64,000 bases of DNA from an uncultured Rickettsiales bacterium (GCA_964574415.1 CAZNNM010000009.1:4975-68974); one strand, 5' to 3'; shown: positions 20,077 through 52,243, counted from the first letter of the stretch. The notes: generated from the sequence alone by a model not told the origin. Made by a program: numbers and translations.

Positions 20077-23000
20077 TTATTGAGCCAGGCCGCTTACTTT
20101 CTGCGCTTGCTCTGCACGACGCGCATCTTCGCGCTCTGCGAATGTCTTTGGTGTAGATTGCTCGGCAATATACTCTTTCACAAACGCATCGATCTCATGC
20201 AAAGCATCCACGACAGTACGCAGCTTATACAGAGTCACAGGCTTACCAGCATCCAAACGCTTTTCCAGCTTTGCCAAATAATCCTGCTCTAAGCCAAGGC
20301 GCTCTAACTGCATCTCAGCAACGTACTCATAGTTAACAGGATCAGCTTTCTGCACAGCTTTATTGCACAGAACATCCTTGATAATGCCCTGTTTACACTC
20401 CTGAATGGCATCCGACAGACCCGTAATCATCGCACGAGCATCCGCAGAATCAACAATCGTTGCTTTCTGGCGGGCGATTTCCTGCTCTTCAGGATCAACC
20501 GTGGTGTATTTGCGGTATAAGGCAAGGCCGAAATTCGCAAGTATCAGTACCGAAGCAGGATCAAAGCCTGGATTGACGTGTGCAACAGCTTCTGCGCTGC
20601 GCGATTCAACATATTTAGCCCGCGCAACAGCCTCTTCAGCCTGGACATTCAGCACAAGCTTTGGCTGGGATGCCACGCCATTCTCAATACTACGGCTCAC
20701 ACTAAACCCATGCTCCTCCAGAATCTTGTGCGCCGATTGTGGCGAAATGCCACGTTCAGACGCTAATTGCAGCATCGCAGCATCATAGCTCTGATGCGAT
20801 TCCTCAGGCGATAAATCCGACTGAATGGCAATGCTAGGCTTGAGAAGCTGAGAGGGTGAGGGTGATTGCGATTGTGGCCGAGATGTAGGCTTAGGCTCAG
20901 CATTCGTATTCGCAGGCGATAAGAGGTTTTGTACTTGCAGCTTCGCTGTATTCCACACAACCTTGCCCAACACTAATGGCGCAATATACCATTCCAAATA
21001 CGATGGGATAGTGAGGCCGCGTGTGGCCGAGCTTGCCACACCTCCGCTACTAGGCCCCGTATATATTCCAGGATCAGGCGGCACATATGTTGGCGGCACA
21101 ACTGTTGGCACAGGCCCCTGCCCAGGCTGCCCCATAGGCTCTGAATCAGGTATAGGCGCAAAACCAGGTTCTGGAGTAAAGCCAGGTTCTGAATTGGGCT
21201 CACCAGTAGGAGGTGTAGGCATTGGAGACTCTACAGGAGGAGGCACCGGCACAGGTGTAACAACAGGGCTACGAGGCGGCAAAGCAAAAGGCGGCGTACT
21301 TACTTGGATCCCAACCCCTTGTGTTTTGATAATACTAGTAGGCAATAATACTGGTTGTACAAATGGAGAGAACTCCACCTCTATCGTTAAATATGGTGCG
21401 TTCTGATAGTCTTCCTCGCTCGCAAAGTCATACATATCTTTGGTATAACTATGCACATAAATATACCCCTTACGGCTCCCGTTACTTGGCTGCGACATGT
21501 AGACCATACGATCTGCAAAAATACCTAAATCAATAACATCTGTCGGACGGTAATTGGGGATGGTTATACGCTGTGCCTGATCTGCCGCCCAAGAAACCTC
21601 AAATACTATCTTATTATTCTTAGGGCCAGGAATAATCGTCACATCATCAATCGTATTGACATAGAAACGATTATTAAAGGTATCATCTCCTTCCAACACC
21701 TGAGGAATACTAGAATACCCTACCGTACGAATTTCTGCCGGCTTATCATAGCCTGCTATCGGATTAAAATTGATGATTTGGCCTGTAGGTAAGTAAGGAC
21801 TGTCTTCTATATTATTCTCCCAATTACAGGCCTGCACATGCAATAATGTGCTACCCTTTTTTACTAGGATCGATCCATACGGATCACACATCAAAAAATA
21901 CCCTGAACCATATGCGATATACGGCACAGGCAGTGGCACGACACTCGGCCCAACAACTGACCGCAAACCATTATTTTGCGTTATCTCATAAACACCTGTA
22001 CGATAATAATTAGACCCGAACTCATTATCACTATATCCACCCAACTCGATAAAAAGACGGCGGTTACTCAGCGGGCGCACAGCCACGATATACCCTGGAG
22101 CAGGGATAGAACCTGTGTAATTATAATGAAAAATATGGGAAAGCATTCCTCCACCAGAGGTAGTCGTAGTATCACATGCTGTCAGCATATTATTCCGGTT
22201 CGGATCACCCGCATATGAATAATATGCTATGCGCTTACCCCATACAACCGGCATCCCCACTGCACAATAAGGCATATCTGGAATAATTGTGCCATTGGCA
22301 AAGGCTGTAATATGTCTCTTGGTATAAGTATTACTGCTTCCAGGATTCAATACTGAAGCAGATTCTTGATTGCTCCACTCAATGTCAAATATATTGTCTC
22401 TTACAGATGCAATCTTGACAACAACAACCCCACGCACGCTACTAGGAGAACTATATTGGCTGTCCATAAATAATACTTTATCATCAGTAAACGGCCCCCC
22501 ATTTTCCGAAAAACTTCGGATTGCCAGATAGGGCTGAGGACGATAGCTCTTCGTTGGCCAACACACCGCAAACCCTGGCTCTTCCCCCGTCAATAGCGCG
22601 ATATCATAATCATCGCCTGATGTAAGGCGGCCGGCCTCGTATGTAGACGGTGCCGTTACCTGGCTCACCCTAAACGGCGCTTTGATAACAACACCATCAC
22701 GGTTCATAATCAGCGCAAAAAGGCGTGTATCATCCCATTTTGAATAACCATCCCCTGTATCAACTGCCAATGTTTGCAGCCAGGTCACTACCGTATTCCC
22801 ATTCTTTAACGTCAATGACTTCGGCTTGCCGATCTGCCCGTAAGGCATTGTGCCTATCGTATTCACCGCCTCCGCCAACCGGCTCAGTGGCTTAACAACC
22901 CCTCCATCCCCATCATATATCGCATAGTTCAAATAAATAGGATAATAATCCCCGCCAGAACCAGGCGCATTAGGGTCAGCTTGCAGACTTAGCGCAAGCA

Positions 23001-28732: not shown

Positions 28733-31700
28733 TTAACGACTGTTACCGCTGTGCCTTTCTTCTGGCTGTTGCGATTGGCTTTGCAAGTAGCGGGAAGCAA
28801 ATGCACCGGCTTCTTGAACATAAGGCCTCACCAGCGATACACTGGCTTGCGCAGCAAGTACAGTAAACGATGCAGTATTCAGCATTAACTGCTCAAACGC
28901 CGTGTTAACAATCGTTTTTACCATACCGCCAATAGTCGGATTATAGGAAGATACTACCTCTGAACCCAACTGACTCACCTTGCATACCGCCGCCCATGGG
29001 CCGTATAGCGCGGTTTTGGCTACCAGATCAACGGTTTCAACTCCAAGTGTTGTCTTCCATGATGAGCCGAAATGCTCACGGGCAAAGCCGCGTATGAATT
29101 GTTCAGCAATACCAACTGCCGCAGAAGAACAAAATACCTGCGCGTTGCTTTGTATCAGCAAACTTTGCAGATCGGCTGTGGTTTGCGGAGTGAAATCAAT
29201 CGTATCACCGTTTTGCGTATAACCACCATTGCGCAGCAATACCTCCTGCACATCATCCGCTTTCAACTCATAACCGCGCGCTTGCGCTTGCGCAGCAAAG
29301 GCTGTGGCTATAGGTGCAATGATCTCTATAGATTCATCCGCATTAAAGTTGACCACCGTGGCGTGGGATGGAACTACATCGCTCGGCGTCTCAACCACAG
29401 GATTAGGATTAGGATTAGACTTAGGCTCTGCATTCGTATGGGCAGACGATAAGAGATTCGGCATTTTCAGTGTCACCGTATTCAGGGCAACATTACGCAA
29501 CGCATATAGCGCAACACCCAACTCCACATACAATGATTGAGAGATGCCACGCGAAGCACTACTCGTCACTGGAGGAGGCGTCACCTCACCTGATGGCGGC
29601 TGTGCGCTTGGTGTTGGGGGTGGGGTGACGGGTGGGGTCGTTGGTGATACAGGCACTTCAGTCGGCGGCGAAGATGGCTCTTCGCCTGGCGTTGGAGGTG
29701 ATACTGGCTCTTCCAGGGGAGGAGTCGGCGTAGGTGTTGGAGTAGGAACAGGCACTGGTGTTGGTTCTTCCGGGGTTGGAGGCGAAGATGGCTGCGGTAA
29801 TGGATCATCATTCTGCACAATCAATCCCTGTGTTCCCACAAAATCCACCTCGTCTATACCCAAATCCTGAGTCACATCCACTCCACCGGCGAGTATTTCA
29901 AAAACTATATCCTCAAATATCGGGCTACTTCTATTATACCCTATAGTCACTGCTTGCTGTTCTGCAATCTCTATTTGCTCTTGTGGAAAATCATGAATGA
30001 CGACATATCTTCCCGTAAATCTTGGATCACTACAGTTTGGAAGATTGCTATAAGATATAAATAACGACTGATGGGATGGATTCATCACGCACCAATTATC
30101 CGCAAACTCTCCATATAGCAATGCCGCTGGCACCGGCACTGTAAGATCTATTGCCGTGCCATTAAGAAAAGCCAGATCATTTTGCCAGTTGCCATCATTA
30201 GTTCCTAATAGTCCATAAACAGTATTGCTCGCACGATTACGGGAAAGAAATGGATATATATTCAGATGATCACGCACATAACGGGTCTTAAATCCGTCTC
30301 CCTCCTCAGTGACAATAGTATACTGCTCCATTACGCTCGTACTGCGATATATCAACCCCTCGCCCAATGCCTTCATCTCTCCACGTTGCAGTGACAGAGG
30401 ATTCCCGCCGAAACGCACTCGATAAAACGGCACCACCGTACCACTCACACATTCTACCGGAATAGTCGTCGTATCCGTAAAATTAATACGAGACACAAGC
30501 GCTTCTGGGCTGACATTTTCCACCAACATCCCGCCAATAATGCCGGTAGACGATGTGGTGCTAATAAAGGTTCCTTCATCTGTGGGCAACAGTTCAAAAT
30601 GTTCGGATGATGTATCACCATGCAGGATAATACTATCTTGCGCCACATCAAATTGCTGAATGCGGTCAACACCATCGCGCCCGATGTGATATCCAAATGT
30701 ATCAGGCGCAGCGCCGCCAATCAGTGTATCTCCATATGTCGCAAACGGGAACCCATGCACATTCTCAGCCACAATCACCGATGTATGGCATCCCTCAAAA
30801 TGATGTTCATGATTCGTATGTTGATAGGTGCCATACCCCTCCCTGTTAAAAGCCGTGTCGCTATATACAGCATGCATCGGAGACGAATTGAGATAGCCCT
30901 GACAGAACGCTTTTATCATCGTGCCATTAATGCTCGGCGCCCATTGAATAAAAGAACCGGACGTTGTGGGCAATAACTGGAATGTAATAGACACACCATC
31001 GGCAAGGCCACGGTTGAGATTATCTGCATGAGAGCCGCCGGGTATCATAAAATAGCCCAACTCTTCAGCAGGAACACTCAGGCTAATATTAAACGTACTC
31101 CCCAGCGGCACTGTATTCAGATTCGCCCAGATAATTTGCCCTAAAACAGGCGCTGTTCCATTGCTCACATAATACCCAAAGCTTGGCGATCTATCGGCAT
31201 CGCTCTCCAGCAATGCCGCCTCGCCTTCCACAAATATCTGCGCATTGCCCGTATCAGGCCCGCCATAGATAACCGTCGGTGAGACATCAGATCCCCGAAT
31301 CACATCATTCCGTTCCGTGCTACACTCCACCCCACGCGGCGGTAGATAAAACTCAATAGGTGTTTCACCTATACGCGATGCAGCAGCCGTAATAACTGAC
31401 ACACCCATACTGATCATCCGGTGAAAAGTCTGTATCTCAAATCTATCATCAACCCCATGACCCTTCACCGCAACATACGGCCCAGGTGCCTGGAAATCAT
31501 ACTTCAAACGGTCAAATGTAATAATATTAGGGTCGCGCCAGATTTGGGGTTTCGCACCAGGCCGCGCAAGGAGTTTGCTGAAGAGAGAATGCTTTAGGTC
31601 ATCCAGAATGTCTTCAACATCTTGATCAAGGTAAAGGCCTATTTCTTTGCCAATATCATAAACTCTTAAAAATACCTCTTCACCCGCTATACCACCAACT

Positions 31701-31933
31701 ATTCCCGCGCCAATAGTTAACACGCCACCCGCAATAACGCCAGGCAGACCTAGCGCTAATAAGGGCGCTAGCGCTTGTGCGGTCATGGTTGCTGCAAACG
31801 CACCACCTGCAACACCACCCCCAAAACCAACGGCCCATTGTGCCATAATATCCGCAGCACCTTGCACATCACCAGATTGATACGCAGCATTAGCATCCGT
31901 GGCTGCCATCGGCGATGCACGCAAGCACATCAC
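28733..31933 (-). CDS. giant modular protein (Gly-zipper-like head, split VWD-like domain with RTX-like insert, Pro-rich linker, C-terminal module shared with protein E)
   Basis: 1066-aa ORF. Head: WAVGFGGGVAGGAFAATMTAQALAPLLALGLPGVIAGGVLTIGAGIVGGIAG. VWD-like start DPNIITFDRLKYDFQAPGPYV and end YGLLGTNDGNWQNDL. RTX-like GDTLIGGAAPDTFGYHIGRDGVD. Linker PVPVPTPTPTPTPP. The last ~280 aa are about 90% identical by eye to the end of protein E. Confidence 0.75.
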   Translation of the reverse strand: MMCLRASPMAATDANAAYQSGDVQGAADIMAQWAVGFGGGVAGGAFAATMTAQALAPLLALGLPGVIAGGVLTIGAGIVGGIAGEEVFLRVYDIGKEIGLYLDQDVEDILDDLKHSLFSKLLARPGAKPQIWRDPNIITFDRLKYDFQAPGPYVAVKGHGVDDRFEIQTFHRMISMGVSVITAAASRIGETPIEFYLPPRGVECSTERNDVIRGSDVSPTVIYGGPDTGNAQIFVEGEAALLESDADRSPSFGYYVSNGTAPVLGQIIWANLNTVPLGSTFNISLSVPAEELGYFMIPGGSHADNLNRGLADGVSITFQLLPTTSGSFIQWAPSINGTMIKAFCQGYLNSSPMHAVYSDTAFNREGYGTYQHTNHEHHFEGCHTSVIVAENVHGFPFATYGDTLIGGAAPDTFGYHIGRDGVDRIQQFDVAQDSIILHGDTSSEHFELLPTDEGTFISTTSSTGIIGGMLVENVSPEALVSRINFTDTTTIPVECVSGTVVPFYRVRFGGNPLSLQRGEMKALGEGLIYRSTSVMEQYTIVTEEGDGFKTRYVRDHLNIYPFLSRNRASNTVYGLLGTNDGNWQNDLAFLNGTAIDLTVPVPAALLYGEFADNWCVMNPSHQSLFISYSNLPNCSDPRFTGRYVVIHDFPQEQIEIAEQQAVTIGYNRSSPIFEDIVFEILAGGVDVTQDLGIDEVDFVGTQGLIVQNDDPLPQPSSPPTPEEPTPVPVPTPTPTPTPPLEEPVSPPTPGEEPSSPPTEVPVSPTTPPVTPPPTPSAQPPSGEVTPPPVTSSASRGISQSLYVELGVALYALRNVALNTVTLKMPNLLSSAHTNAEPKSNPNPNPVVETPSDVVPSHATVVNFNADESIEIIAPIATAFAAQAQARGYELKADDVQEVLLRNGGYTQNGDTIDFTPQTTADLQSLLIQSNAQVFCSSAAVGIAEQFIRGFAREHFGSSWKTTLGVETVDLVAKTALYGPWAAVCKVSQLGSEVVSSYNPTIGGMVKTIVNTAFEQLMLNTASFTVLAAQASVSLVRPYVQEAGAFASRYLQSQSQQPEERHSGNSR

Positions 31934-31980
31934 GTTATTTCATTATTATCATTTAACCCTGGAAATATTATAAACGACTA

Positions 31981-34900
31981 TCAACGGCTGCTGGCAAGTT
32001 GCTTTTCTTCCTGCTGTTGCGCGTGACCTTGCAAGTAACGGGAAGCAAATGCGCCCACTTCTTGGACATAAGGCCCTATCAACGATACAGTGGCTTGCGC
32101 AGCGAGTACAGGCAGAGATGCAGTATTCAGCATTAGCTGCTCAAACGCCGTATCAACAACCGTTTTCACCATGCCGCCAATCCTCGGATCATAGGCCGAT
32201 ACCACTTCTGAACCCAACTGGCTCACCTTGCATACCGCCGCCCATGGGCCGTATAACGCCGTTTTGGCTACCAGATCAATGGCTTCAACCCCCAGCGCAG
32301 TCTTCCACGATGGGCCGAAATGCTCACGGGCGAAGCCGCGTATAAATTGCTCAGCAAGACCCATCGCCGCAGAAGAACCAAACGCCTGCGCGTTGCTCTT
32401 TATCAGCAAGCTTTGTAGATCGGCTGCGGTCTGCGGGGTAAAATCAACCATATCACCTTTTTGCGTATAGCCACCATGGCGCAGCAATACTTCCTGCACA
32501 TCATCCGCATTCACCTCATAACCGCGTGCATGCGCTTGAGTGGCAAAGGCGGTGGCAATCGGTGCAATGACATCGATAGATTCATCCGCATTAAGGTTAC
32601 GCACCGTGACCGTCGCTTTGGATGATACTACACCGCTCGAACCTGGCGTCTCAACCACAGGCTTAGGTTCGGCATTGGTATTCGCAGGCGCTAAGAGGTT
32701 TTGCACCTTAAGTTTTACTGTACTGAATGACGTTTTACCAAGTGCAAGTGCATATGATACAACAACTGTATCTATCCAACTCATATAGAATGGCTCAGAA
32801 ATACTAGGCGAAGCACTGCTCGTCATCGGCGGAGGCGTCACCTCACCTGATGGCGGCTGCGCGCTTGGTGTTGTGGTCGTGGTGACTGGTGGCGTCGTTG
32901 GTGGCACAGGCACCTGCCCAGGCTGCCCCATAGGCTCTGAACCAGGCATAGGCGAGAAGCCGGGTTCCGGGACAAAACCGGGCTCTGGTGTTGGCTCCCC
33001 GACAGGAGGAGGTGGTAGTGGCGTCAGTAATGGTAACGTCCCCTCCAATACAGATACACTAGCAGCTGGAATCGACTCGACACGATACGGATTATACAAC
33101 ACAGTTGAAAACTCTATATCCGCCAACGATAACATCTGCGCATCACGCTTCTGCCCAGGCGCGAATGCTATATTAATACGTGTGCGTGGCAATGCATTGA
33201 ATTGCTCTAATGTCCGGCCAATATTTTCTACGTAATGATGATAAGTAAAATCTACCAACGATATCTGGGCATAAGGTCTTTCTGCTGTAGGTTGGCTTAA
33301 ATAAACGCCTGGTGGATAGCCTTCTGCAAAATAACTCAGCACCACCTCTATTTTATCACCGGCCGAGAAATCGTTAAAGTTATACACTACATCCGGAGTC
33401 CCCTCTGGATTGTTACTTGCATAGAACATCCTTAACTTATCTGGATATGGCCCGCTTATAAATGTAGCATTCTTCGCCCACCCACATTCCAGTATAGTAG
33501 AAAAAGCTCTATCTGCCATTACCGGAACCTCCAGCTCTGTCCGAACATCTACCGGTTGGTGATATTTAGTAGACGAGATAATCTCTAAGTATGTCACCAC
33601 ACTAGATACAACCTCTGTATTTCTAATATCCATTTGTGTTGCCATAATAAATGCATGCTTCTGCAATGTTTGATGCACGATAGCTGCACGCATCTGTAGA
33701 TTATGCGAATACCAAGAGAGATTTACTGGAAATGCTGAAGATTGCGTATAGGATGGCAGATTACACATTTCTAGATTACGAGAACCATAGGCACAGCCGC
33801 GGATTAACAATGATGTAGCAGCCGCTTTATAATCAGACGTAGATGCACTACCTACCCCCCATTCCACCAGCTTCTTATCACTGAACATCATTCTACCAAA
33901 GGTATGAGTATATCCGGCATCTATAACATCAAACGGAAAAGTAGGAGATACTTTAAGAACATCTTCTGGCCCAAGATATTGAACTTCACCACCAGGTAAT
34001 ATACTTGCAGCCCCACTCACTCCAGTAGCCGTCACAACATTAGACCAATGCACATCCACTACACCATCAGGCTGCGCAACCGCTCCAGTCCTAAATGGAA
34101 AATTAGCAAATGTTGTGGTATGCAGTAGCACTGGCTCAGCCTTAGGCTCACCTGTATTCGCAAAATACCGTATAAACACGCGTACCGTATTACTGCCTAG
34201 CTCAGGCAAAACATCAGCCCAGCTAACCGCAAACCCCTCCTCCTCTCCTTCTAATGCGGCACAACCAAACTCTTTTACAAACGTAGTTGAATATAACGGC
34301 ACCACCTCCTGCAAATGCCCACCTTCAGCTGCCACCACCGTCCCCACCCTAAACGGCGCCACCACAACCTGCATCTGCGCATTCACAATCATGCCCTTAA
34401 GAATATTCCCATCCGTACGATGCACAAACCCAATAAAGCTATTCCCATTACTCAGCTTTATACTCTTTAAAGCCTCATATTCCTCAGACGTTGAGAGTGC
34501 TGAAAAGGAAGTAGTATCAGCCGTCAGAAGACGCGTGCTCCCCTGCACCAGACCACCATTCATATTACGTATCTGATACGATACATGCGGGGTTATCATA
34601 TTCTCAGGCGATGGCACTAAATCCGATAAACGCCTCCCCAATAATGCTATATTTCCATTCCCTAGAGATACTATAGCATCAACTCGCAAATCGGGAATCT
34701 CAACCCGCCGCTTGCTCAAATCTATCCCAAAATCACCATTCTCAAATTCCTCCACACGAACACTATGCGAAGAACTCTGCGCTTGAATAACCAGGTCACT
34801 CCCCTGCATCCCAAGATTAAACGTCCGCCCGTCATGCACCATCGTGCACGAAACCTCGCTCACACACGTAGGCGCATCCGTGCCAAAAAGACGGTCGCCC

Positions 34901-36108
34901 ATAAAAATCTGGTTAGCAGGAGCATTCTCGTCAGCAATAACATCCTCATCGGCAGTCACACTATCAGGCAAAAACTTATACTTATTAACAGCTCTCACAT
35001 TCTCATAACGATCACTACCACCAAAATCAGGGATGTCATAATTCCCTTCCGTAGTGATAACCCTATCTCGTTTATTCGTCGTGCCGAATATCTCAGCATT
35101 AGATAAACCATGCGTCAGGATCGTTACGCCAGTTTGAAGTTCAGGATTGGGAAGATGGTTAAGATTTGCTATAAATGCAGCACGATATGCAGAAAAGTCA
35201 CCGTCATATAGCGTCTGCAAACGTGGAGGAACCAAGTCGCCCGTCAACGGATTTGCAGCCCAACGGGCTTTCATGTATTCTTCCCAGTAGTAGGGGTTTT
35301 CATCGTAATTTTCATAATGACCACGCCCACCAAGTACACCTTGTGGCCATGCATAGGGTTCACTATATACAGCTGGAAAATCCTGACCGGGTTGGAATTG
35401 TTGGAAAATAGGTCCCATACGATGCTGGCCAGTAAAAGAAAAATACCATGCATAATATACACTAGCAGGCTGTGCCGTTGTACCATCAATCGTAGTATAT
35501 GAAGGATAAGCACGATAAACCTTACCAACCTGACGATTGGCGGTATTAATTGCATTGGACGCAGCATTAAATGTTGTAACGTGTCCTTCCGCCCATTCTA
35601 ATGCCCCAGCAGTAAAGCTACCCCCAATCACAAGTTCTTGAATATTAGGACGAGAACCAGGGCTATCGAAACTTACAACAGGAGAACGGTCTCTTGCGCC
35701 ACACAATTCCGCTAGAAAACCACCCAATGAGTGACCTGTATGACTTACATGTTCATAAGGATTTAAACCAGTAATGCGTATATACTCTATAGCAACAGCA
35801 TCAATAAATGGTACTGCACTTGCCCAGAATTGCTCTGTTGCAGATGATAATAACGCTAACCATACATCATCACCTATATCCTTTACTACTTCAAATCCCG
35901 GACTTGTTCCTCTATGAGCAATAATCAGTTGCTTGGTTTCCGAATTAAAGTATGCCGACCCAAAATAGCCATTTCCTTGTAACTCTGGCGCAGCATCTAG
36001 AAGGATGGACCATCCAGTAGGTAGCCTCCCAGGTGGTAATAACAGCGTATCATCTTCATCGCGATAAACTTCAACGCTTAATAAAGCATAATCATAATTC
36101 TTTGCCAT
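31981..36108 (-). CDS. giant modular protein E with N-terminal class-3-lipase-like head
   Basis: 1375-aa ORF. The head contains HTGHSLGGFLAELCG (a GxSxG nucleophile elbow). The core contains ENGDFGIDL and SLGNGNIALLG / LSNGNSFIGF blades. The EPGFVPEPGFSP linker matches A and the C-terminal module matches the 1066-aa protein. GGAG lies 8 nt upstream of the ATG. Confidence 0.8.
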   Translation of the reverse strand: MAKNYDYALLSVEVYRDEDDTLLLPPGRLPTGWSILLDAAPELQGNGYFGSAYFNSETKQLIIAHRGTSPGFEVVKDIGDDVWLALLSSATEQFWASAVPFIDAVAIEYIRITGLNPYEHVSHTGHSLGGFLAELCGARDRSPVVSFDSPGSRPNIQELVIGGSFTAGALEWAEGHVTTFNAASNAINTANRQVGKVYRAYPSYTTIDGTTAQPASVYYAWYFSFTGQHRMGPIFQQFQPGQDFPAVYSEPYAWPQGVLGGRGHYENYDENPYYWEEYMKARWAANPLTGDLVPPRLQTLYDGDFSAYRAAFIANLNHLPNPELQTGVTILTHGLSNAEIFGTTNKRDRVITTEGNYDIPDFGGSDRYENVRAVNKYKFLPDSVTADEDVIADENAPANQIFMGDRLFGTDAPTCVSEVSCTMVHDGRTFNLGMQGSDLVIQAQSSSHSVRVEEFENGDFGIDLSKRRVEIPDLRVDAIVSLGNGNIALLGRRLSDLVPSPENMITPHVSYQIRNMNGGLVQGSTRLLTADTTSFSALSTSEEYEALKSIKLSNGNSFIGFVHRTDGNILKGMIVNAQMQVVVAPFRVGTVVAAEGGHLQEVVPLYSTTFVKEFGCAALEGEEEGFAVSWADVLPELGSNTVRVFIRYFANTGEPKAEPVLLHTTTFANFPFRTGAVAQPDGVVDVHWSNVVTATGVSGAASILPGGEVQYLGPEDVLKVSPTFPFDVIDAGYTHTFGRMMFSDKKLVEWGVGSASTSDYKAAATSLLIRGCAYGSRNLEMCNLPSYTQSSAFPVNLSWYSHNLQMRAAIVHQTLQKHAFIMATQMDIRNTEVVSSVVTYLEIISSTKYHQPVDVRTELEVPVMADRAFSTILECGWAKNATFISGPYPDKLRMFYASNNPEGTPDVVYNFNDFSAGDKIEVVLSYFAEGYPPGVYLSQPTAERPYAQISLVDFTYHHYVENIGRTLEQFNALPRTRINIAFAPGQKRDAQMLSLADIEFSTVLYNPYRVESIPAASVSVLEGTLPLLTPLPPPPVGEPTPEPGFVPEPGFSPMPGSEPMGQPGQVPVPPTTPPVTTTTTPSAQPPSGEVTPPPMTSSASPSISEPFYMSWIDTVVVSYALALGKTSFSTVKLKVQNLLAPANTNAEPKPVVETPGSSGVVSSKATVTVRNLNADESIDVIAPIATAFATQAHARGYEVNADDVQEVLLRHGGYTQKGDMVDFTPQTAADLQSLLIKSNAQAFGSSAAMGLAEQFIRGFAREHFGPSWKTALGVEAIDLVAKTALYGPWAAVCKVSQLGSEVVSAYDPRIGGMVKTVVDTAFEQLMLNTASLPVLAAQATVSLIGPYVQEVGAFASRYLQGHAQQQEEKQLASSR

Positions 36109-36123
36109 TCACTACTCCATTAT

Positions 36124-36555
36124 TTAATGCAAACTACGCTGAGCCGCTAACCACCATATAAAAGTTATTGCTATTAATGCCAGCGGTACAACTATAATTA
36201 TTGCTCCTCTGGTTAAGATATGCATATAGCTCAATTTTGTATTGCCGCTATTCCTCCATAAAAAAACTCCAACTACTAATTCATATAAAAGAAATACGCC
36301 TACCAATATACTTGCAATAACATAATCGACATCCTTACTAAAAGCAGTGTCTGAACCTGCTAATCTATCTGGATTTAAAGATGACAACAGAATATCAAAC
36401 ATATAATTCCATAGAATATTTGTTATATAGAATAGAAAGATACTTCCAACAACTCCCCACCCCCAAAACACAATCCAGAGCCTTACCTCACCTTTCCAGC
36501 ATCGTTTTAAATGATTAACAATAGACATACCCACTCCTATCAACACCCCCATCAC
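36124..36555 (-). CDS. small polytopic membrane protein (immunity-like candidate) upstream of lipase protein E
   Basis: About four hydrophobic segments. The likely true start is ATG 36528 (MSIVNHLKRCW), preceded by GGAG. It is a paralogue of the frameshifted gene at 38029..38410. Confidence 0.6.
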   Translation of the reverse strand: MMGVLIGVGMSIVNHLKRCWKGEVRLWIVFWGWGVVGSIFLFYITNILWNYMFDILLSSLNPDRLAGSDTAFSKDVDYVIASILVGVFLLYELVVGVFLWRNSGNTKLSYMHILTRGAIIIVVPLALIAITFIWWLAAQRSLH

Positions 36556-38014
36556 CCAGCGACACTAACGCATCCACTCGCAAGCCCACAATCTCAACCC
36601 GCCGCTTGCTCAAATCTATCCCAAAATCACCATTCTCAAATTCCTCCACACGAACACTATGCGAAGAACTCTGCGCTTGAATAACCAGGTCACTCCCCTG
36701 CATCCCAAGATTAAACGTCCGCCCGTCATGCACCATCGTGCACGAAACCTCGCTCACACACGTAGGCGCATCCGTGCCAAAAAGACGGTCGCCCATAAAA
36801 ATCTGGTTAGCAGGAGCATTCTCGTCAGCAATAACATCCTCATCGGCAGTCACACTATCAGGCAAAAACTTATACTTATTAACAGCTCTCACATTCTCAT
36901 AACGATCACTACCACCAAAATCAGGGATGTCATAATTCCCTTCCGTAGTGATAACCCTATCTCGTTTATTCGTCGTGCCGAATATCTCAGCATTAGATAA
37001 ACCATGCGTCAGGATCGTTACGCCAGTTTGAAGTTCAGGGCTTGGCAAGCGGTTTAGTTTCTCGGAAATAAAGGCACTACGATACGCGGCAAAATTATTC
37101 CCATAATGCTCTTGAACGCTTATCGAGACACCATTAATATTCGCCCACTCAGGATCAGCGGCCCAACGGGCAGCTATGTATTTTTCCCAGTAGTAAGGGT
37201 TCTGGTCATAATTCTTGTACTGATTATAACCACTCGTATCCACTAACGTTCCAAACGGCCAAACATCAGGCTCGCTATATACTGTTGGCAAATCTTGGCC
37301 AGGCTGGAATTGTTGGAAGATAGGAATCATACGGTGCTGGCCCGTAAAAGAAAAACTATATCCATAATAAATATTACCAGGTTGATCGCTCATGCCGTCA
37401 ATGGTCATATATGGTGAATATACCCTATACATCTTCCCAACATGAGTATTGGCAGTACTAACTGCATTAGGGGCCGCATTAAACGTCACCGTATTTGCAT
37501 CAATCCATGCCATAGCATCTGAAGCAAATGTACCATCAATAATAAGATTTTGGATATTGGGACGCGAACCAGGACTTTCAAAATTCCGAACGGGAACTTT
37601 ATCCATTGCTCCAGATAGCTCCGCCAGAAATGCCCCTAATGAATGTCCCGTGTAACTCAAATGCTCACGTGGCCCTAAACCGGTAACGCGGAAATATTCT
37701 GCTTTTGCGGCATTGATGAAGGGGATGGCATTCTCATGAAATTGTTGGGTTTGCCAATCTAGTAATGCCAACGCTATATCATCGCCAACATCAGCAAAAA
37801 TATTATCTGTTCCAGCATGTGCTATAATAAGCTGCTTTGTAAAATTATTTATATACGCTCTGCCAAAATAGCCATTTGCAGACCATCCTCCATCTTGGGA
37901 ACTGAGCAAAATAGACCAATCACTGGGAAGCCGTCCTTCAGGCAAGAAAACATCATCTTCCGGATTATTGTAACACTCAACACTAAATAATGCATATTCA
38001 TAGTTCTTAACCAT
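36515..38014 (-). CDS. truncated lipase-head paralogue (second class-3-lipase-like head plus constant region, truncated at the first NGN blade)
   Basis: 499-aa ORF. The head contains YTGHSLGAFLAELSG and is about 60% identical by eye to the E head. nt 36590-37039 are identical to E nt 34696-35145. The ORF ends in a short unrelated tail (DGGVDRSGYVYC*) where E has GNGNIALLG. Confidence 0.7.
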   Translation of the reverse strand: MVKNYEYALFSVECYNNPEDDVFLPEGRLPSDWSILLSSQDGGWSANGYFGRAYINNFTKQLIIAHAGTDNIFADVGDDIALALLDWQTQQFHENAIPFINAAKAEYFRVTGLGPREHLSYTGHSLGAFLAELSGAMDKVPVRNFESPGSRPNIQNLIIDGTFASDAMAWIDANTVTFNAAPNAVSTANTHVGKMYRVYSPYMTIDGMSDQPGNIYYGYSFSFTGQHRMIPIFQQFQPGQDLPTVYSEPDVWPFGTLVDTSGYNQYKNYDQNPYYWEKYIAARWAADPEWANINGVSISVQEHYGNNFAAYRSAFISEKLNRLPSPELQTGVTILTHGLSNAEIFGTTNKRDRVITTEGNYDIPDFGGSDRYENVRAVNKYKFLPDSVTADEDVIADENAPANQIFMGDRLFGTDAPTCVSEVSCTMVHDGRTFNLGMQGSDLVIQAQSSSHSVRVEEFENGDFGIDLSKRRVEIVGLRVDALVSLGDGGVDRSGYVYC

Positions 38015-38028
38015 ATTAATTCTCTATC

Positions 38029-38410
38029 TTAGCTATGATTAAAAGTTAAAAACTGTTGCATGAACCATCCTAAAAGCAGCAACAACCCTCCCAAAAAACC
38101 GATTAGAATAACACTTACTCGTGTTAGAGTTTTCAGAAACTGGCTACTTGTATTGGCGCTGTTTTTCCATATTATAAAAAGTGCAAGTAAGCAGTAGCAT
38201 ACAGCTATAGAAAAATATATTGTACCAAACCAAAATTCATTATACCGACCAAATGCCTCATGAATAGACGGATACAGATAGCTCCACAGATAAATCATAG
38301 CTGTTACAAGAGCACTTGATACAGCTACCCCCCCAACCCCAGAACACAATCCAGAGCTTTTCCTCGCCTCTCCAACACCGTTTTATATGATTTACAAATC
38401 CAGACAACAT
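38029..38410 (-). pseudogene. frameshifted paralogue of the 36124..36528 membrane protein (G7 tract)
   Basis: ATG 38410 opens MLSGFVNHIKRCWRGEEKLWIVFWGWG, matching MSIVNHLKRCWKGEVRLWIVFWGWG in the paralogue. The frame is then lost at a run of 7 G on the minus strand (7 C on the plus strand, 38328-38334). The rest of the homologue (the 106-aa ORF 38029..38349) is in the adjacent frame, and G6 would restore a single ORF. Confidence 0.7.
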
Positions 38411-38442
38411 CTTCTCTTCCCATAGTTGTATTTCGCAACCGC

Positions 38443-38471
38443 ACCATACCTAACAGCCCAACCACTGTCAA
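38443..38471 (-). promoter_or_regulatory. sigma70-type promoter, cassette copy 4
   Basis: On the minus strand: TTGACA, a 17-nt spacer, then TATGGT, about 33 nt upstream of ATG 38410. GGAAGAG lies before the ATG. Confidence 0.55.
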
Positions 38472-38595
38472 CTTTACCGATTCACCAATAAGTTATACTT
38501 TCTGGCGGATATCCGCTCGCATGATGCTATAACTCTCTGGTATATAAAAAGAGTAATGGTTGTGTTTTTAGCGCTTTGGCATAAATAGAATATTG

Positions 38596-39096
38596 CTAGG
38601 CAGCTGATGAATACGTTGTATTCCCATTCGCCAAGGAAATCATCGCATCCACCCGTAAATCAGGAATAGCATAACGGCGCTGGCTCAAATCTATCCCAAA
38701 ATCACCGCTCTCATAACCCTTAACCTTGATGCTATGCGTAGAGTCCTGGGCTTGGATGACTAAATCTCCATTCTGAACGGAGACGCTATAGGTTTTTCCC
38801 TTATGGGTCGTGGTGCAGGATATTTCGCTGGCACATTCAAAGCTGCTTGTGCCGAACTGCCCTTCATCAATATCAATACAGTACGATGGCCAGTAAGCGG
38901 CAAGGTGAGATACGATGCAGGAAGGTGAATACCAAAATAGGTACTGACTTATTTTGAAATAATTGCCGTCATTTTTGGACTTGATCGGCGTTGTTGCATG
39001 GCGATAAAATACCCTGTCATCAGCCCAAGGATGACAAGCATTCATAACACCTATGTATTTTTCTAATGTTATCTTGGGACTGTCACATTCTGACAA
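38596..39096 (-). pseudogene. chimeric remnant ORF F (unrelated 5' part with MITE fragment, out-of-frame patch of gene A, E-like segment)
   Basis: nt 38874-38938 are identical to gene A nt 23033-23097 but are read in a different frame. Downstream, FGTSSFECASEISCTTTHKGKTYSVSVQNGDLVIQAQDSTHSIKVKGYESGDFGIDLSQRRYAIPDLRVDAMISLANGN is colinear with E. It ends with the tail TYSSAA*. nt ~38975-39000 match the MITE terminal sequence CTTGATCGGCGTTGTTGCATGG. Confidence 0.65.
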
Positions 39097-39162: not shown

Positions 39163-39190
39163 GGGACGGCGAAACCGTCCCTTTTTGCTT
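39163..39190. terminator. GC-rich hairpin immediately after the 798-aa gene
   Basis: GGGACGG-cgaaa-CCGTCCC followed by TTTTTGCTT on the plus strand. On the minus strand, which is the coding strand of the flanking genes, an A-run precedes the stem and no U-tract follows it. Confidence 0.45.
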
Positions 39191-41585
39191 AGGAGATGAC
39201 ACAGTGGTCATGCTTCCGCTGCTTTTGTACTTTTTCGGTATGCAGTGACTGTGAGGAACTTGCGATACCTCCCATGGCTCCATTTGAAGATGATGCTTGC
39301 AGAGAAGGCTGCGGAGATTCATCAGGTGTCAACACTGAGACAGCAGGCATGGCACGGCTAAGCAGGGCAGATGGCGCATCCCTGCCTAATATTGCCCTCA
39401 GATTTCCCGATGCCCCCAATGCATCACGCGTTGCTTGTGCCAGCCTGCTTGCATCTTGTAGGGTGAGATAGGATGCCAGACTCTCCATAACAGATTGTGC
39501 CGTATGAATAAGAGGCTGCTGTACAGAGCGGGATTGCACATAAAAACTTGTCCAAACAGGGCCTGGCACATTACCCGAAACACCTAAAACAGAGCTATGA
39601 TATTCATAGGCTAGTTCTGTAGGCCTTATCTGTATCTGCTGTATAAAATGCATACATGTTGCAGGATATTTTTCTAATCTCGTAAGGAGATTTATATACG
39701 CCGCAGGATTCTCCTGTAACTGTCGAAGGAAATCAGCATATTTCGCATCATGCTCTTGTAACTGTACCAGGAAATCAGCACATGCTACAGGGCCCTTCTG
39801 TAGCTCGACAAGAAAATCAGCATATGTATCAGGGTAGCGCCCTAATATTGTGAGAAACTGAGTACATACACCATCCAGCGATAAAATATTTTCTTTTATT
39901 CCAGCTATTGTCCAACCTTTTGCTACTAATATGGATAGGCTGAAACATCCTCCCCCCAATATCTTTTCCAATGTTTCAAAGTCATCTTTATAACACTCTA
40001 TGATAAACTGAGGAGCAACACCTATATCTGCTAACAGCATCGCTCCATGCATCATCTTTCCGAGCAATACAGGTTGTGTTTTAGATAGCGATATAATGTA
40101 CTCATTAGGAACATTGAGTCTTTGCAAATCCTCAATAGCCCCAATCCCAGCAGCATATAAGATTTTACTCCAACCTGTTGGTTCTGTAATGCATCCATTC
40201 ACAAGCTGCGCATTAATGATGCCAAGTTCCTTGAGTACCCGAAGTCCTTCCAACCCATCTCCAGTAATCATTTGGCACAGGAGATGCGGGGTATGCATAA
40301 AAAGCTCGTGTATTTCCGGCATTCGGAATACCATAATTTGTAAGGATCGCAGCCCTCGCAACCCATCTTTACTTATCATCTGACACAGGAGATGCGGGGT
40401 ATGCATAAAAAGCTTTTGTATTCCCTCCATTGGGAATCCTGTATCTATTAAAGCTCCCAGTCCTTTCAACCTATTTTCTACAATTATCTGATAGAGCAGA
40501 TATGGCTCATTCACAACAAGATTTCGTACACCTTCCTTAGAAAGATATCCCTCTCTTAATATACACATTACGTACTGCCCAGCGTTGCTCATTATCTGCG
40601 CCAGAATATCTGGTTTCTCCGTAAAGAGTGTTTGCACCTCTTCTCCCGTAACCCCCATCTCCTGGAATACTTGCGGACACTCTAAGCTAATCGACGCCAG
40701 CATATCGCTTAAAAGAGCAGGGTTAGCTTTAAATAGATTCACAATATTATCATTATGAATACCCAATTGCTGCAATACCAGCACCCCATCCTGATTAACA
40801 TACCTTAATACATTAACAAAAGCGTATGGATTCGTTTCCAATACTTTCAGGATCGACCCTTTCCGCACACCTAAATTCTGCAATAATATGATGGTTTCCA
40901 GCCCCATGGGACTACCTATAGAAACGAATAGTGTTATATCCGTCTGAAACACGCCTGTAATCGTTTTATTATATACCCCTAATGCTCTGAATGCTATAAG
41001 ACCATCTAATAGTTTTTCATATGACAGCCTTGAATTCTCCATAAGCACATGAAAAATATCTAACGGAGAGATGCCAATATCCTGAAACCCCCGCAACTCC
41101 CCTTGTTCTACTTTAGATACCAGCGCCTTTAACAATGAATAGAGATGCCGAGCATCCTGTTGGTACCATTGCTCAATCTGGCCCTTCGTAGCTCCCCAGC
41201 TATGCAACACCCAAAATCCTTCCAGCTGAGAACGCCATCTTTGTTGATTGGCAGAATCACGCACAATCTTCTCCAGTACCTCACTCAGAAATACGGGAGC
41301 CTCGCGAAACAACTCACCTACCTGTTCAATACTCACACCAGCATCACGCAATTGCTTTAATTCACCAGCATACTTAACTATCTTACTAAAGAGTTGGTCA
41401 TACTTAGAAAACAGCGCAATAATATCATCGCGATTAATTCCCGCACCCTCTAATGCTTGAAGTACCCCCTGTCTCCTATACCCATCCATCGCCTCCGGCC
41501 ATTCTCTGACTGGATTCTGTACAGGGGTGACTGGCGCGGTAGCAGAAGATGAGGCAGTAGGCGTGTTTTTTGTTTTTTTAGGCAT
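39189..41585 (-). CDS. mTERF-like repeat protein (eukaryote-like effector candidate)
   Basis: 798-aa ORF made of more than 12 consecutive ~36-aa units of the form LxxLG(I/V)xxxxIxxLFxxxPxLLxxMxxxxxxxxxx, for example LQQLGIHNDNIVNLFKANPALLSDML and LIDTGFPMEGIQKLFMHTPHLLCQMI. Five or six ~12-aa YADFLxxLQxxP units follow. The C-terminus has an F-box-half-like LASYLTLQDASRLAQAT. Confidence 0.6.
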   Translation of the reverse strand: MPKKTKNTPTASSSATAPVTPVQNPVREWPEAMDGYRRQGVLQALEGAGINRDDIIALFSKYDQLFSKIVKYAGELKQLRDAGVSIEQVGELFREAPVFLSEVLEKIVRDSANQQRWRSQLEGFWVLHSWGATKGQIEQWYQQDARHLYSLLKALVSKVEQGELRGFQDIGISPLDIFHVLMENSRLSYEKLLDGLIAFRALGVYNKTITGVFQTDITLFVSIGSPMGLETIILLQNLGVRKGSILKVLETNPYAFVNVLRYVNQDGVLVLQQLGIHNDNIVNLFKANPALLSDMLASISLECPQVFQEMGVTGEEVQTLFTEKPDILAQIMSNAGQYVMCILREGYLSKEGVRNLVVNEPYLLYQIIVENRLKGLGALIDTGFPMEGIQKLFMHTPHLLCQMISKDGLRGLRSLQIMVFRMPEIHELFMHTPHLLCQMITGDGLEGLRVLKELGIINAQLVNGCITEPTGWSKILYAAGIGAIEDLQRLNVPNEYIISLSKTQPVLLGKMMHGAMLLADIGVAPQFIIECYKDDFETLEKILGGGCFSLSILVAKGWTIAGIKENILSLDGVCTQFLTILGRYPDTYADFLVELQKGPVACADFLVQLQEHDAKYADFLRQLQENPAAYINLLTRLEKYPATCMHFIQQIQIRPTELAYEYHSSVLGVSGNVPGPVWTSFYVQSRSVQQPLIHTAQSVMESLASYLTLQDASRLAQATRDALGASGNLRAILGRDAPSALLSRAMPAVSVLTPDESPQPSLQASSSNGAMGGIASSSQSLHTEKVQKQRKHDHCVIS

Positions 41586-41768: not shown

Positions 41769-42230
41769 CTATATCCTCATAAACTCCGAATACACCCCAT
41801 CCTTAAGCTGGTAAATAATGAACGGAGCTTCTTTGGGGCCGGGCATACCTGGAGTGCCGATTGGCATTCCAGGTAGCGCGATACCATCAATATCGGGGTT
41901 TTCTTCCAGAAGTTTACTCACGGCTTTAAGGGGGACATGACCTTCAATGAAATATTTACCGATAATGGTGGTATGACAAGAACGCATTTCTGCGGGGATG
42001 TTATGGGTATCTTTTACCGCATCCACCGCTTCCGTATTAGTCGAGCGCACCTTCCAACCCTTCTCCTCAAGAACACGAACGTAACCTGTACAGCAGCTAC
42101 AACTTGGTGATTTAAAGACTTCTGCGGAATAGGTCACTTCTTGCTGATCCTGGCTGATATCAAGAACATATAAACCAGTACCCAGCAGGATTGATGCTCC
42201 TAGGAAGAAGAGAAATAAGGTGCCTTTCAT
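41769..42230 (-). CDS. copG: DUF411 (CopG-type) periplasmic metal-binding protein
   Basis: Signal/anchor helix, a Cys cluster SPSCSCCTGY, and the conserved ...FIEGHVPLKAV... and GMPIGTPGMPG segments typical of DUF411 proteins in cop clusters. Confidence 0.75.
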   Translation of the reverse strand: MKGTLFLFFLGASILLGTGLYVLDISQDQQEVTYSAEVFKSPSCSCCTGYVRVLEEKGWKVRSTNTEAVDAVKDTHNIPAEMRSCHTTIIGKYFIEGHVPLKAVSKLLEENPDIDGIALPGMPIGTPGMPGPKEAPFIIYQLKDGVYSEFMRI

Positions 42231-42251
42231 TATACTATCCTCGGCTTAACG

Positions 42252-42491
42252 TTACTGCTTTTTCATTTTTTCATGATCCATGGTGCTCATATCACCATCA
42301 GCTTGCTTAGAACATTTTTCTTTTTCTGCGCAATCTTTAGAACAATCTTTTCCCTTAGCACATTCCATCATGCAATCTTTCCCTTGCGGGCATGCTTCTT
42401 TGCTTGCATGGTCATGTGCTGATCCTGCATAACCTATAGCAGGTGTCATAATAACTGAGGCAATAAGTAGTTTTCTCATGATATTTTTCAT
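42252..42491 (-). CDS. small secreted Cys/Met/His-rich protein (putative metal binding)
   Basis: 79-aa ORF with a signal peptide (ending GYAGSA). It has repeated KDC/KEKC motifs and an HDHxxK...MDHEKM segment, and it lies within the cop cluster. Confidence 0.5.
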   Translation of the reverse strand: MKNIMRKLLIASVIMTPAIGYAGSAHDHASKEACPQGKDCMMECAKGKDCSKDCAEKEKCSKQADGDMSTMDHEKMKKQ

Positions 42492-42514
42492 AGTCTTTCT
42501 CCTTTTTGTTATGG

Positions 42515-43039: not shown

Positions 43040-43048
43040 TTCTATCTC

Positions 43049-45386: not shown

Positions 45387-45405
45387 ATGTTCTTTTTCTC
45401 CATCA

Positions 45406-51424: not shown

Positions 51425-51481
51425 GGTGGTGGCTTGATATAAAAATACATCCTGTCATTGATAGTGTATCATCTTGAATTT

Positions 51482-52230: not shown

Positions 52231-52243
52231 TAAGCAAATAAAA

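Follow-up and report, generated by a model that had tools for sequence, protein, structure and literature searches.

We analysed a 64-kb stretch of DNA (64,000 nucleotides, hereafter the window) from an uncultured Rickettsiales bacterium (GCA_964574415.1, CAZNNM010000009.1:4975-68974). An earlier reading of the sequence alone (the sequence-only reading) had singled out a locus at positions 20077-39096, counted on the numbering of the whole stretch, as a mosaic of giant modular proteins, fragments and small membrane genes that might form a toxin system with a variable N-terminus. The locus holds twelve open reading frames (ORFs), all on the minus strand, of 1395, 291, 437, 213, 154, 192, 1066, 1375, 143, 499, 106 and 166 amino acids (aa), and the sizes and coordinates reported earlier are exact. 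They comprise three intact giants (A1395, E1066 and F1375), two short forms that carry an N-terminal head (B437 and G499), three scraps (C154, D192 and H166) and four small membrane-protein or lipoprotein genes (s291, s213, s143 and s106). Different heads are found on the same type of RTX/junction module in this and other genomes, small envelope-protein genes lie directly ahead of head genes, a gene-head pair is conserved in another organism, and a recombination tract coincides with the junction behind the head. The locus may therefore encode envelope-targeting toxins with cognate immunity genes.

Architecture of the locus

From its N-terminus, A1395 (20077-24264) consists of a Gly/Ala-rich hydrophobic head (residues ~85-135), an RTX turn (266-292) and a junction ending in 'IEDFRSGDFGI'. 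Behind these come a beta core of 'NGN' blades, the Pro-rich linker EPGFTPEPGFAP, a segment made of 'SSAT', a hydrophobic stretch and 'NTNAEPKP', and a helical C-terminal module of type 1 (~1186-1395). F1375 (31981-36108) carries a class-3-lipase-like head with a GHSLG motif, behind which come a degenerate RTX turn and the junction, VEEFENGDFGIDLS, an 'NGN'-blade beta core, a Pro-rich linker and an 'SSAS' segment; a type 2 module with a Gln-rich tail forms its C-terminus. In all-vs-all BLASTP, from which the identities in this section derive, A1395 and F1375 are 26-30% identical in two core stretches.

The third giant, E1066 (28733-31933), has a different build. Its Gly-zipper head (~35-85) is followed by a middle region of its own, with a VWD domain and one RTX-like motif (~398-445), and then by the Pro-rich linker PVPVPTPTPTP, an 'SSAS' segment and, at the C-terminus, a type 2 module. 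E1066 lacks the RTX turn, junction and 'NGN' core common to the other giants. With A1395 it shares only the Pro-rich linker and the segment formed by 'SSAS', a hydrophobic stretch and 'NTNAEPK', and its likeness to F1375 (69% identity across the last ~350 residues) lies in the type 2 module plus the linker and 'SSAS' segment. The C-terminal modules of type 1 (A1395) and type 2 (E1066 and F1375) are unrelated to each other.

Both short forms retain a head. B437 (25299-26612) is composed of a Gly-zipper head, RTX turn and junction, is 41% identical to A1395 over 330 aa (residues ~80-400), and ends directly after the first 'NGN' with the tail 'FDLRITQYQ*'. G499 (36515-38014) contains a lipase head and junction and ends soon past the first blade; it is 70% identical to F1375 across ~490 aa, with ~58% amino-acid identity between the two heads. 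The locus is thus a mosaic, but the earlier proposal that every gene in it belongs to one inter-related set does not hold, as s291 and s213 resemble no other protein of the locus.

Homologies of the protein modules

A profile built from five lipase-head sequences matched PDB structures of class-3 lipases and of feruloyl esterase A (6unv, E 5e-6), and the NCBIfam model Rlip aligned with residues 31-227 of F1375 (E 7.6e-15, 54.7 bits, the equivalog cut-off being 440). GHSLG and one downstream His are invariant in the five aligned heads, and the motif is intact in F1375 and G499; neither protein reached the Pfam Lipase_3 threshold. By curated thresholds, the F/G head is a relative of class-3 lipases and Rlip rather than a member of either family, and we regard it as a predicted enzyme. 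The heads of A1395, B437 and E1066 contain Gly/Ala-rich hydrophobic segments.

The junction profile matched an RTX block of CyaA (E 2e-15) and the beta-roll of a lipase exported by a type I secretion system (T1SS; E ~1e-9). The NCBIfam models RTX_toxin and PueAB matched B437 at ~6e-7. Pfam HemolysinCabind scored below its gathering score (19.2 vs 23 bits). On these profile matches, the RTX turn is a true RTX beta-roll, degenerate in F1375 and G499. The segment behind it, '...DL.I....SV.I.DF..GDFGI.L', is the most conserved piece of the family. In many RTX proteins a similar region lies behind the RTX blocks; one of them, P0018, bears an HCBP_related domain and was matched by the same profile. 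The core then opens with 'L.NGN.vv.W' repeats. Those of A1395 are homologous to the blade-like repeats of proteins on the metagenomic contigs L091-L093 (A1395 residues 436-509 vs L092, E 2.5e-5), and P0002 also has similar blade-like repeats. A PDB sequence search with the three giants gave weak RTX matches only.

The VWD domain of E1066 is recognised by Pfam PF00094 (33.1 vs 22.9 bits, E 8.3e-8, best stretch residues 531-592). A word-indexed search with the C-terminal module of E1066 and F1375 was uninformative, as it missed even the query protein. We also considered whether this module could be a divergent XVIPCD, the C-terminal domain of known antibacterial effectors (Pfam PF20410, ~120 aa, conserved motifs plus a Gln-rich tail); this was ruled out by hhalign, which aligned the module with the XVIPCD alignment at a probability of 0.1.

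Much of the modular anatomy proposed by the sequence-only reading is borne out by these comparisons, namely the class-3-lipase-like heads with GHSLG in F1375 and G499, the Gly-zipper-like hydrophobic heads in A1395, B437 and E1066, the RTX-like turn, the Pro-rich linkers and the two unrelated C-terminal modules. The attribution of an RTX turn and 'NGN' core to the giants holds for A1395 and F1375, whereas E1066 is built without them. Among the domain families suggested in that reading, VWD exceeded its cut-off, while HemolysinCabind, Lipase_3 (in F1375 and G499) and DUF3592 stayed below theirs.

Small genes and promoter-like elements

Every head-bearing gene save E1066 is closely preceded by a small gene for an envelope protein. 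The predicted lipoprotein gene s291 (24261-25136), with the lipobox LVSC after one N-terminal hydrophobic segment, overlaps the start of A1395 with its stop by 4 nt. The gene s213 (26627-27268) ends 14 nt ahead of B437 and encodes a protein with two transmembrane (TM) segments; its true start is probably the ATG at 27127 (166 aa), downstream of its promoter-like site. Two genes for three-TM proteins precede the lipase heads: s143 (36124-36555, probable start at the ATG at 36528) lies 15 nt ahead of F1375, and its homologue s106 (ORF 38029-38349, or 38029-38410 including a frameshifted part) lies 14 nt ahead of G499. All the partner proteins are predicted to be membrane-bound or periplasmic.

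Once its frameshift is repaired, s106 is 35% identical to s143 (E 3e-22), and the two pair with the homologous heads of G499 and F1375. The genes s143 and s106 co-vary with the F and G lipase heads. The C-terminal domain of s213 is weakly DUF3592-like (PF12158, 18.8 bits vs a cut-off of 25.3, E 0.0026); its layout of two TM segments plus a beta domain fits DUF3592, and the same layout is found in a homologue on contig L087. DUF3592-type membrane proteins have also been described in LXG toxin loci, where their function is unclear (PMC12482557). No match to s291 was found in Pfam, NCBIfam or PADLOC. We consider s291 a candidate cognate partner of the A1395 head and s143 a candidate partner of the lipase head. 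By gene order and co-variation, the small upstream genes behave as head-specific partners, with binding or neutralisation as their putative role.

Four copies of one promoter-like element were found, with the pattern CAACTTATTGG..A.T.GG.AAARTTGACA, 17 nt, TATGGT, in which a direct repeat of (A/G/C)TTGGG, spaced by 2 nt, abuts the TTGACA -35 box. All lie on the minus strand: at 38443-38495 upstream of s106, at 27805-27857 upstream of C154, at 27177-27229 (TTGACT, 17 nt, TATGGT) upstream of the probable s213 start, and at 25162-25214 (CAACTTATTGGGTAATTGGGAAAATTGACA, 17 nt, TATGGT) upstream of s291. In the window the element is confined to these four places (chance expectation, 0.00). It thus stands ahead of three of the four small genes, s143 having none, and suggests one regulator for all units. 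The motif is not conserved in related loci. Terminator-like hairpins were detected on the same strand directly after the B437 stop (25233-25253, with a T-run) and after the C154 stop (27248-27269), so that in both genes a tail of the type 'FDLR..Q.Q*' is followed by such a hairpin.

Recombination tracts and debris

A perfect repeat of 450 bp links F1375 (34696-35145, residues ~322-471, minus strand) to G499 (36590-37039). It covers exactly the junction module of both genes, and its flanks share only ~60% nucleotide identity. The tract is best explained, as far as sequence comparison goes, by a recent gene conversion or recombination event. A misassembly was ruled out by reasoning: both copies have unique flanks on each side and the given order alone uses all four flanks once, so the repeat is not a simple assembly artefact. 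With the two copies in direct orientation, a deletion from one to the other would place the G499 head on the F1375 core. Part of the locus is also confirmed by an independent short-read contig (L171, SRR9674365), which equals window positions 25253-27286 exactly, includes B437, and stops at the repeated terminator and promoter copies.

The three scraps are chimeric or headless. C154 (27315-27779) joins an s291-type 5' end ('MLYMAT') to a junction/blade fragment, and its tail, 'FDLRRAQHQ*', is of the same type as that of B437. D192 (ORF 27957-28535) is F-like in its first half and A-like, at 51%, in its second. Its homology begins right behind the E1066 stop, at the equivalent of F1375 residue ~316, and runs upstream to 28718 past two in-frame stops located at its 5' end; D192 is therefore headless. 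H166 (38596-39096) contains 65 bp (38874-38938) identical to A1395 (23023-23087) and read out of frame, that is, an A-like relic fused to an F-like junction fragment, and it shares the junction segment with C154. Fragment ends fall directly after an 'NGN' motif, with the tail type 'NGN.FDLR..Q.Q*' in B437 and C154 and 'NGNT.YSSAA*' in D192 ('NGNTVYSSAA*') and H166. The in-frame stops, the out-of-frame relic and the chimerism rule out D192, C154 and H166 as functional orphan cassettes. What had been taken for orphan modules is recombination debris; B437 and G499, on the other hand, are interpreted as displaced heads.

The frameshift in s106 maps to a run of seven G on the coding strand (38328-38334), and removal of one G yields a 126-aa ORF colinear with s143. 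The frameshift could stem from a sequencing error, mark a pseudogene or reflect phase switching by strand slippage. Ratios of nonsynonymous to synonymous substitution (dN/dS) between paralogue pairs are ~0.15-0.3; for the scraps these low values mainly reflect the history before truncation. The order short head form, small gene, full giant was seen three times: G499-s143-F1375, B437-s291-A1395 and, on L087, P0061, a 163-aa gene and a giant. The two junctions on L087 are 76% identical over 249 bp.

Relatives outside the window

Close relatives of the locus are scarce. In a word-indexed search of 5.8 billion proteins, F1375 retrieved itself and six distant matches to the lipase head only, and the A/B head retrieved only itself. 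Exact look-ups of F1375, G499 and the CopB protein encoded elsewhere in the window found none of them on record. A scan of genome contigs with F1375 yielded no relative, a metagenome scan with the junction alignment and a search of viral contigs yielded nothing, and tblastn against plasmids gave no relatives apart from two weak matches to the lipase elbow. PADLOC reported nothing on the locus. In tblastn against the fetched loci, s291, s143, the E1066 middle region and the flanking proteins were without matches.

The A/F core, used as a profile in an exhaustive HMMER search of 1.84 billion cluster representatives, identified a single core relative beyond those of the window, P0009; all other matches to this profile cover only the RTX/junction part. 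P0009 is 63% identical to F1375 and lies on two short contigs of related sequencing runs (L081:3475-5570 and L082:1431-3733). It starts at the equivalent of F1375 residue 357, without a lipase head and behind unrelated sequence, and a break at F1375 residue ~730 divides it into two ORFs. By this alignment, a related organism has lost the head exactly at the junction boundary.

More distant relatives carry other heads on the RTX/junction module. Phage-lysozyme-like heads occur in P0029 and P0056, lipase heads in P0083 and P0061, and Gly-zipper heads in P0044 and a 1159-aa giant on L087, the last two being 30-33% identical to B437 over ~390 residues. P0029, P0044 and P0083 share a second type of core (28-29% over 500-650 residues). 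Lysozyme, lipase and Gly-zipper heads are thus found on homologous scaffolds, so head exchange extends well beyond this genome, and the supposition that heads are interchangeable is upheld. In the proteins on L091-L093 (metagenome contigs from JGI, GC content 28-38%; 1100-1170 aa) the modules come in another order, with at least six 'EF.vNT...L.nGnFvv.W...G.Y.q.f' blades, then the lipase, the RTX/junction and a C-terminal transmembrane helix. To judge from these alignments, the same parts have been shuffled in other lineages. P0029, P0044, P0056 and the L091-L093 proteins all end in a transmembrane helix plus a charged tail.

Partner genes are also seen in relatives. The B437-like giant (E 3e-58) of L087, a contig from an unrelated metagenome, follows 18 nt behind the gene for an s213 homologue of 163 aa (E 5e-12), and this gene-head pairing is kept at ~30% identity in another organism. 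The lysozyme-headed P0056 is preceded by a gene with an LprI lysozyme-inhibitor domain, P0029 by one for a signal-peptide protein, and the lipase-headed P0002 by one for a 147-aa polytopic membrane protein, 10 nt upstream. A scan of JGI metagenomes with the lipase-head alignment retrieved proteins of 430-530 aa whose N-terminal lipase is 25-31% identical to the F1375 head. Three of the five tested have a C-terminal Pfam XVIPCD (E 1e-17 to 3e-32, 65-111 bits), and most are preceded by a gene for a ~200-aa lipoprotein with a 4-bp overlap. Their layout corresponds to that of the X-Tfe/X-Tfi pairs (PMC6536674) discussed below. The only secretion-related gene seen near any family member is on L086 (1249-4761), where the genes for a coupling protein of the VirD4 type (T4SS-DNA_transf, E 1.5e-56) and for a protein of 518 aa, weakly matched to an ankyrin repeat, lie ~5 kb from the lipase-headed P0083, among housekeeping genes.

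Genomic surroundings

A TpsA/filamentous-haemagglutinin protein of 3129 aa is encoded at 2419-11808 (minus strand; TPS domain E 1.6e-41), with an esterase-like domain containing a GHSNG motif at its C-terminal end. Downstream of tpsA, a 244-aa ORF (1725-2459) is followed by a copy that lacks its 5' part (1711-2); this copy continues past the edge of the window and corresponds to TpsA residues 2187-2756 at 96% amino-acid identity. No TpsB gene is present among the window ORFs. Given tpsA and its truncated downstream copy, the organism has at least one toxin locus of the contact-dependent inhibition (CDI) type. The sequence-only reading had noted the absence of a secretion apparatus, integrase or transposase; no transporter, integrase or transposase was indeed found among the scanned window ORFs of at least 150 aa, whereas the window does hold this two-partner-secretion substrate.

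Between the TpsA region and the giant locus, a 1707-aa protein without close family is encoded at 13826-18949 (minus strand). Two stretches are weakly similar to glycosyltransferases of the GT-A/GT2 type (NCBIfam 3e-9; Pfam Glycos_transf_2 0.016), and the protein may be another large effector-type protein. The low-GC gap (41%) between tpsA and the 1707-aa gene contains two adjacent genes for helix-turn-helix proteins of the Cro/C1 type (11988-12888, plus strand; 170 and 131 aa).

The locus is flanked by two proteins with mTERF repeats. One, of 798 aa, is encoded at 39189-41585 (minus strand; Pfam mTERF 7e-17), and the other, of 344 aa, at 18968-20002 (plus strand) shares these repeats (BLASTP 1.7e-6). 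The gene for the latter contains internal tandem units of 108 bp (19001-19217 vs 19109-19325, 82%), and the C-terminus of its product, LPPELLSQYILPYLRPQDLF, looks F-box-like by eye, without confirmation from Pfam. At 13284-13463 (minus strand) lies a fragment of 60 residues that resembles the C-terminus of the 798-aa protein.

The surroundings at 41769-46026 and 49982-63831 contain ordinary chromosomal genes. Among these are genes for copper resistance (DUF411, DUF2231, CopB, a multicopper oxidase and an ECF-type sigma factor), the repair genes Ada-AlkA and Ogt, a peroxiredoxin, and a cluster resembling those for aryl polyenes (two ketosynthases, an FAD halogenase-like protein, MMPL-like and LolA-like proteins, an acyltransferase and a GT2). 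In a scan of genome contigs with the KAS gene, the best matches reached only 60-70% and came from MAGs of Gammaproteobacteria, the group to which copAB, ada-alkA and the aryl-polyene-like cluster also point. Scans of the window for tRNAs and Rfam families returned nothing.

Discussion

We propose, with confidence that is evenly balanced, that the locus encodes toxins that target the envelope and vary at the N-terminus, with immunity genes upstream, and that displacement of heads at the junction has diversified them. The sequences show the anatomy, the homologies, the variety of heads among relatives, the conserved pairing of genes with heads and the recombination tracts; toxicity, immunity, the target (rival bacteria or the host) and the secretion route are what we infer in this proposal. 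The head would be the toxic module, either a class-3-type (phospho)lipase or a glycine-zipper segment that inserts into membranes. The small upstream gene would provide cognate immunity, s143 and s106 for lipase heads and s213 and s291 for Gly-zipper heads, and each is presumably co-transcribed with its head gene, s143 from the s106 promoter. The RTX beta-roll, the HCBP-like junction and the 'NGN'-blade core may form a Ca2+-dependent extracellular scaffold, and the conserved C-terminal part (Pro-rich stalk, hydrophobic helix and one of two helical modules) may hold export or targeting information. Homologous recombination in the junction would place a new unit of immunity gene, head and junction before the resident core. 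The earlier head would then remain upstream in a truncated gene that still follows its immunity gene (G499 behind s106, B437 behind s213), together with chimeric debris such as H166, D192 and C154. Such head displacement would mirror the way in which CDI and Rhs loci displace C-terminal toxins.

Several observations weigh against this proposal. E1066 has a Gly-zipper head yet no small gene upstream, the related heads of A1395 and B437 carry unrelated partners (s291 and s213), the frameshift in s106 means that the s106/G499 pair may be dead, and no clear partner precedes the closer relatives of the lipase head on L094-L096. For the C-terminal modules, neither Pfam nor tblastn on all fetched loci gave relatives, and PF20410 found no match at E<=0.1 in A1395, E1066 or F1375. 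The window is without a secretion system, including VirB/VirD4 and T1SS genes. AlphaFold2 models of the A/F core (pLDDT 28.6) and of the E/F C-terminal module (pLDDT 37.0) were both unusable, and statements about folds are consequently drawn from sequence. The eukaryote-like mTERF-repeat flanks point to a host-associated lifestyle, as does Rlip, the best named relative of the F1375 head, which is a secreted, host-directed lipase effector of Rickettsia (PMC12507273). As regards the small cognate genes, the earlier suggestion gains from the s213 pair on L087, the LprI/lysozyme pair and the co-variation of s143 and s106 with their heads, and is weakened by E1066, which has no partner.

A more far-reaching version of the proposal, which we hold only tentatively, is that the locus represents an undescribed class of polymorphic toxins with inverted polarity. 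Here, recombination at the junction would swap heads together with immunity genes, and the novel C-terminal modules would constitute a new export signal or route in uncultured bacteria that may be host-associated. Displaced heads would accumulate upstream, and deletion between junction repeats could fuse a stored head again to the core; the G7 tract of s106 may add phase variation.

It seems rather doubtful that the giants are effectors translocated into a eukaryotic host, for instance by a type IV secretion system (T4SS) that recognises their C-terminus, with heads that attack host membranes in the manner of Rlip and small genes whose products only shield the producer or assist as chaperones or in export. 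The kinship of the F1375 head with Rlip, the mTERF-repeat proteins on both sides of the locus, the adjoining glycosyltransferase-like protein of 1707 aa, and the coupling-protein and ankyrin-repeat genes near P0083 would all suit such effectors, and the transmembrane helix and charged tail of several relatives recall tail-anchored effectors of host membranes. However, lysozyme heads that follow LprI-type or periplasmic proteins make sense only against peptidoglycan, envelope-located partners specific to a head are typical of antibacterial toxin/immunity pairs, and the same type of lipase head is found in antibacterial effectors with XVIPCD. The host-effector and antibacterial readings need not be mutually exclusive.

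That the giants are T1SS (RTX) substrates, either bacteriocin-like or exolipases, is unlikely. They would be exported C-terminus first by ABC, MFP and TolC components encoded elsewhere, and the roll would fold on Ca2+. The matches of the junction profile to CyaA RTX blocks and to a T1SS lipase beta-roll, those of B437 to RTX_toxin and PueAB, and the several RTX blocks of wider relatives are in keeping with this route. Nevertheless, the giants have only two or three nonapeptides, ~1000 residues from the C-terminus, so that T1SS export would be possible yet atypical; the turn is degenerate in F1375 and G499, T1SS genes are missing from the window, and the transmembrane helix and tail of the relatives are unusual for T1SS cargo. 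Finally, a plain, decaying tandem array of large surface or RTX-type paralogues (adhesins, S-layer-like proteins), with small genes as passengers and fragments as pseudogenes, is unlikely because the catalytic lipase motif is intact in F1375 and G499 and small-gene/head pairing is conserved elsewhere, to which are added dN/dS well below 1, three head classes exchanged on a common junction, a promoter-like element before three of four small genes and tight spacing (14-15 nt or overlap). In favour of such an array, D192, C154 and H166 are clearly debris, s106 is frameshifted, many surface proteins have Pro-rich linkers or RTX or VWD elements, and the near-absence of homologues in 1.8-5.8 billion proteins makes selection for a conserved function hard to show.

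If envelope-targeting toxins with displaced heads are indeed encoded here, the locus would be a mirror-image counterpart to C-terminal displacement in CDI and Rhs systems, in which a giant scaffold exchanges heads and immunity genes at its N-terminus. The locus would also extend the logic of the T4SS effectors known as X-Tfe to a new protein family, with C-terminal delivery modules of a new kind, beyond Xanthomonadales-like systems, provide new candidate immunity families (s143/s106, the DUF3592-like s213, and s291), and offer a candidate function for DUF3592-type membrane proteins. The junction repeats are a recombination substrate that could be traced in population sequencing. As the family is nearly absent from 1.8-5.8 billion public proteins, its study rests on this genome and a few metagenomic contigs.

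Comparison with known systems

The closest known analogue is the X-Tfe/X-Tfi system of bacteria-killing, Xanthomonadales-like T4SS. X-Tfe effectors have N-terminal toxins and a C-terminal XVIPCD with a Gln-rich tail (PMC6536674). Their toxins include lipases and peptidoglycan hydrolases, fragmentary and non-functional effector ORFs occur, and the X-Tfi immunity genes are usually upstream, co-transcribed and often lipoproteins (PMC6536674, PMC8740702). The present locus has in common with this system a variable N-terminal head of toxin type, a conserved C-terminal part, a small gene upstream and fragmentary ORFs. In addition, metagenomic XVIPCD proteins carry a lipase head homologous to the F/G head, s291 has a lipobox, and the small genes are separated from the head gene by 14-15 nt or overlap it by 4 nt; the Gln-rich tail of E1066 and F1375 is a resemblance only. 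Unlike X-Tfe, the giants are two to three times larger, lack a detectable XVIPCD, and have an RTX/junction and a blade core as well as a Pro-rich stalk and C-terminal modules of a novel kind. Lipase heads are here partnered by polytopic inner-membrane proteins and not by lipoproteins, displaced copies and recombination tracts accompany a tandem array of heads, and VirB/VirD4 is missing from the window. Judged by its sequence features, the locus is not a member of this system, since XVIPCD is missing. The reversed polarity emphasised in the sequence-only reading holds in that the N-terminus is variable and truncated heads lie upstream, but it has a precedent in X-Tfe (PMC6536674), with the same type of lipase head.

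With CDI (CdiA-CT/CdiI) and Rhs systems the locus shares a big conserved scaffold, one hypervariable and presumably toxic end, an adjacent small gene, and truncated copies that share a homologous recombination segment with the main gene; an example, TpsA, is found 8 kb away. The polarity is inverted relative to these systems, as it is the N-terminus that varies and the partner and displaced copies are found upstream, and Pfam detected no TPS, FHA, VENN, PAAR or Rhs-YD elements in the giants.

RTX proteins such as CyaA and the family I.3 lipases of T1SS have the same GGxGxD nonapeptide beta-roll followed by a 'DFGI'-type segment. The junction profile matched CyaA and the 2z8x lipase beta-roll, and HCBP_related (PF06594) is present in some matched proteins, e.g. 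P0018. In contrast to these proteins, the giants have a single short block far from the C-terminus (~266-292 of 1395 residues in A1395) and no linked T1SS genes in the window. Likewise, the lipase head has the GHSLG nucleophile elbow and alpha/beta-hydrolase core of Rlip and Lipase_3 proteins, but is here the head of a multidomain protein of 1375 aa.

Glycine-zipper toxins that act on membranes include CdzC/CdzD of Caulobacter and effectors of the type VI secretion system such as Tse4 and Ssp6, and the immunity proteins to them are small inner-membrane proteins. The Gly/Ala-rich, small-xxx-small hydrophobic segments of the giants, as the presumed toxic element, and the inner-membrane protein s213 resemble these toxins and their partners by description only, and the segment heads a giant protein here instead of forming a small peptide or a C-terminal domain. 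Compared with known systems, new features of the locus are a giant scaffold of RTX and blade parts, its pair of C-terminal modules, families of candidate immunity proteins, and a tandem arrangement suggestive of head displacement, debris included.

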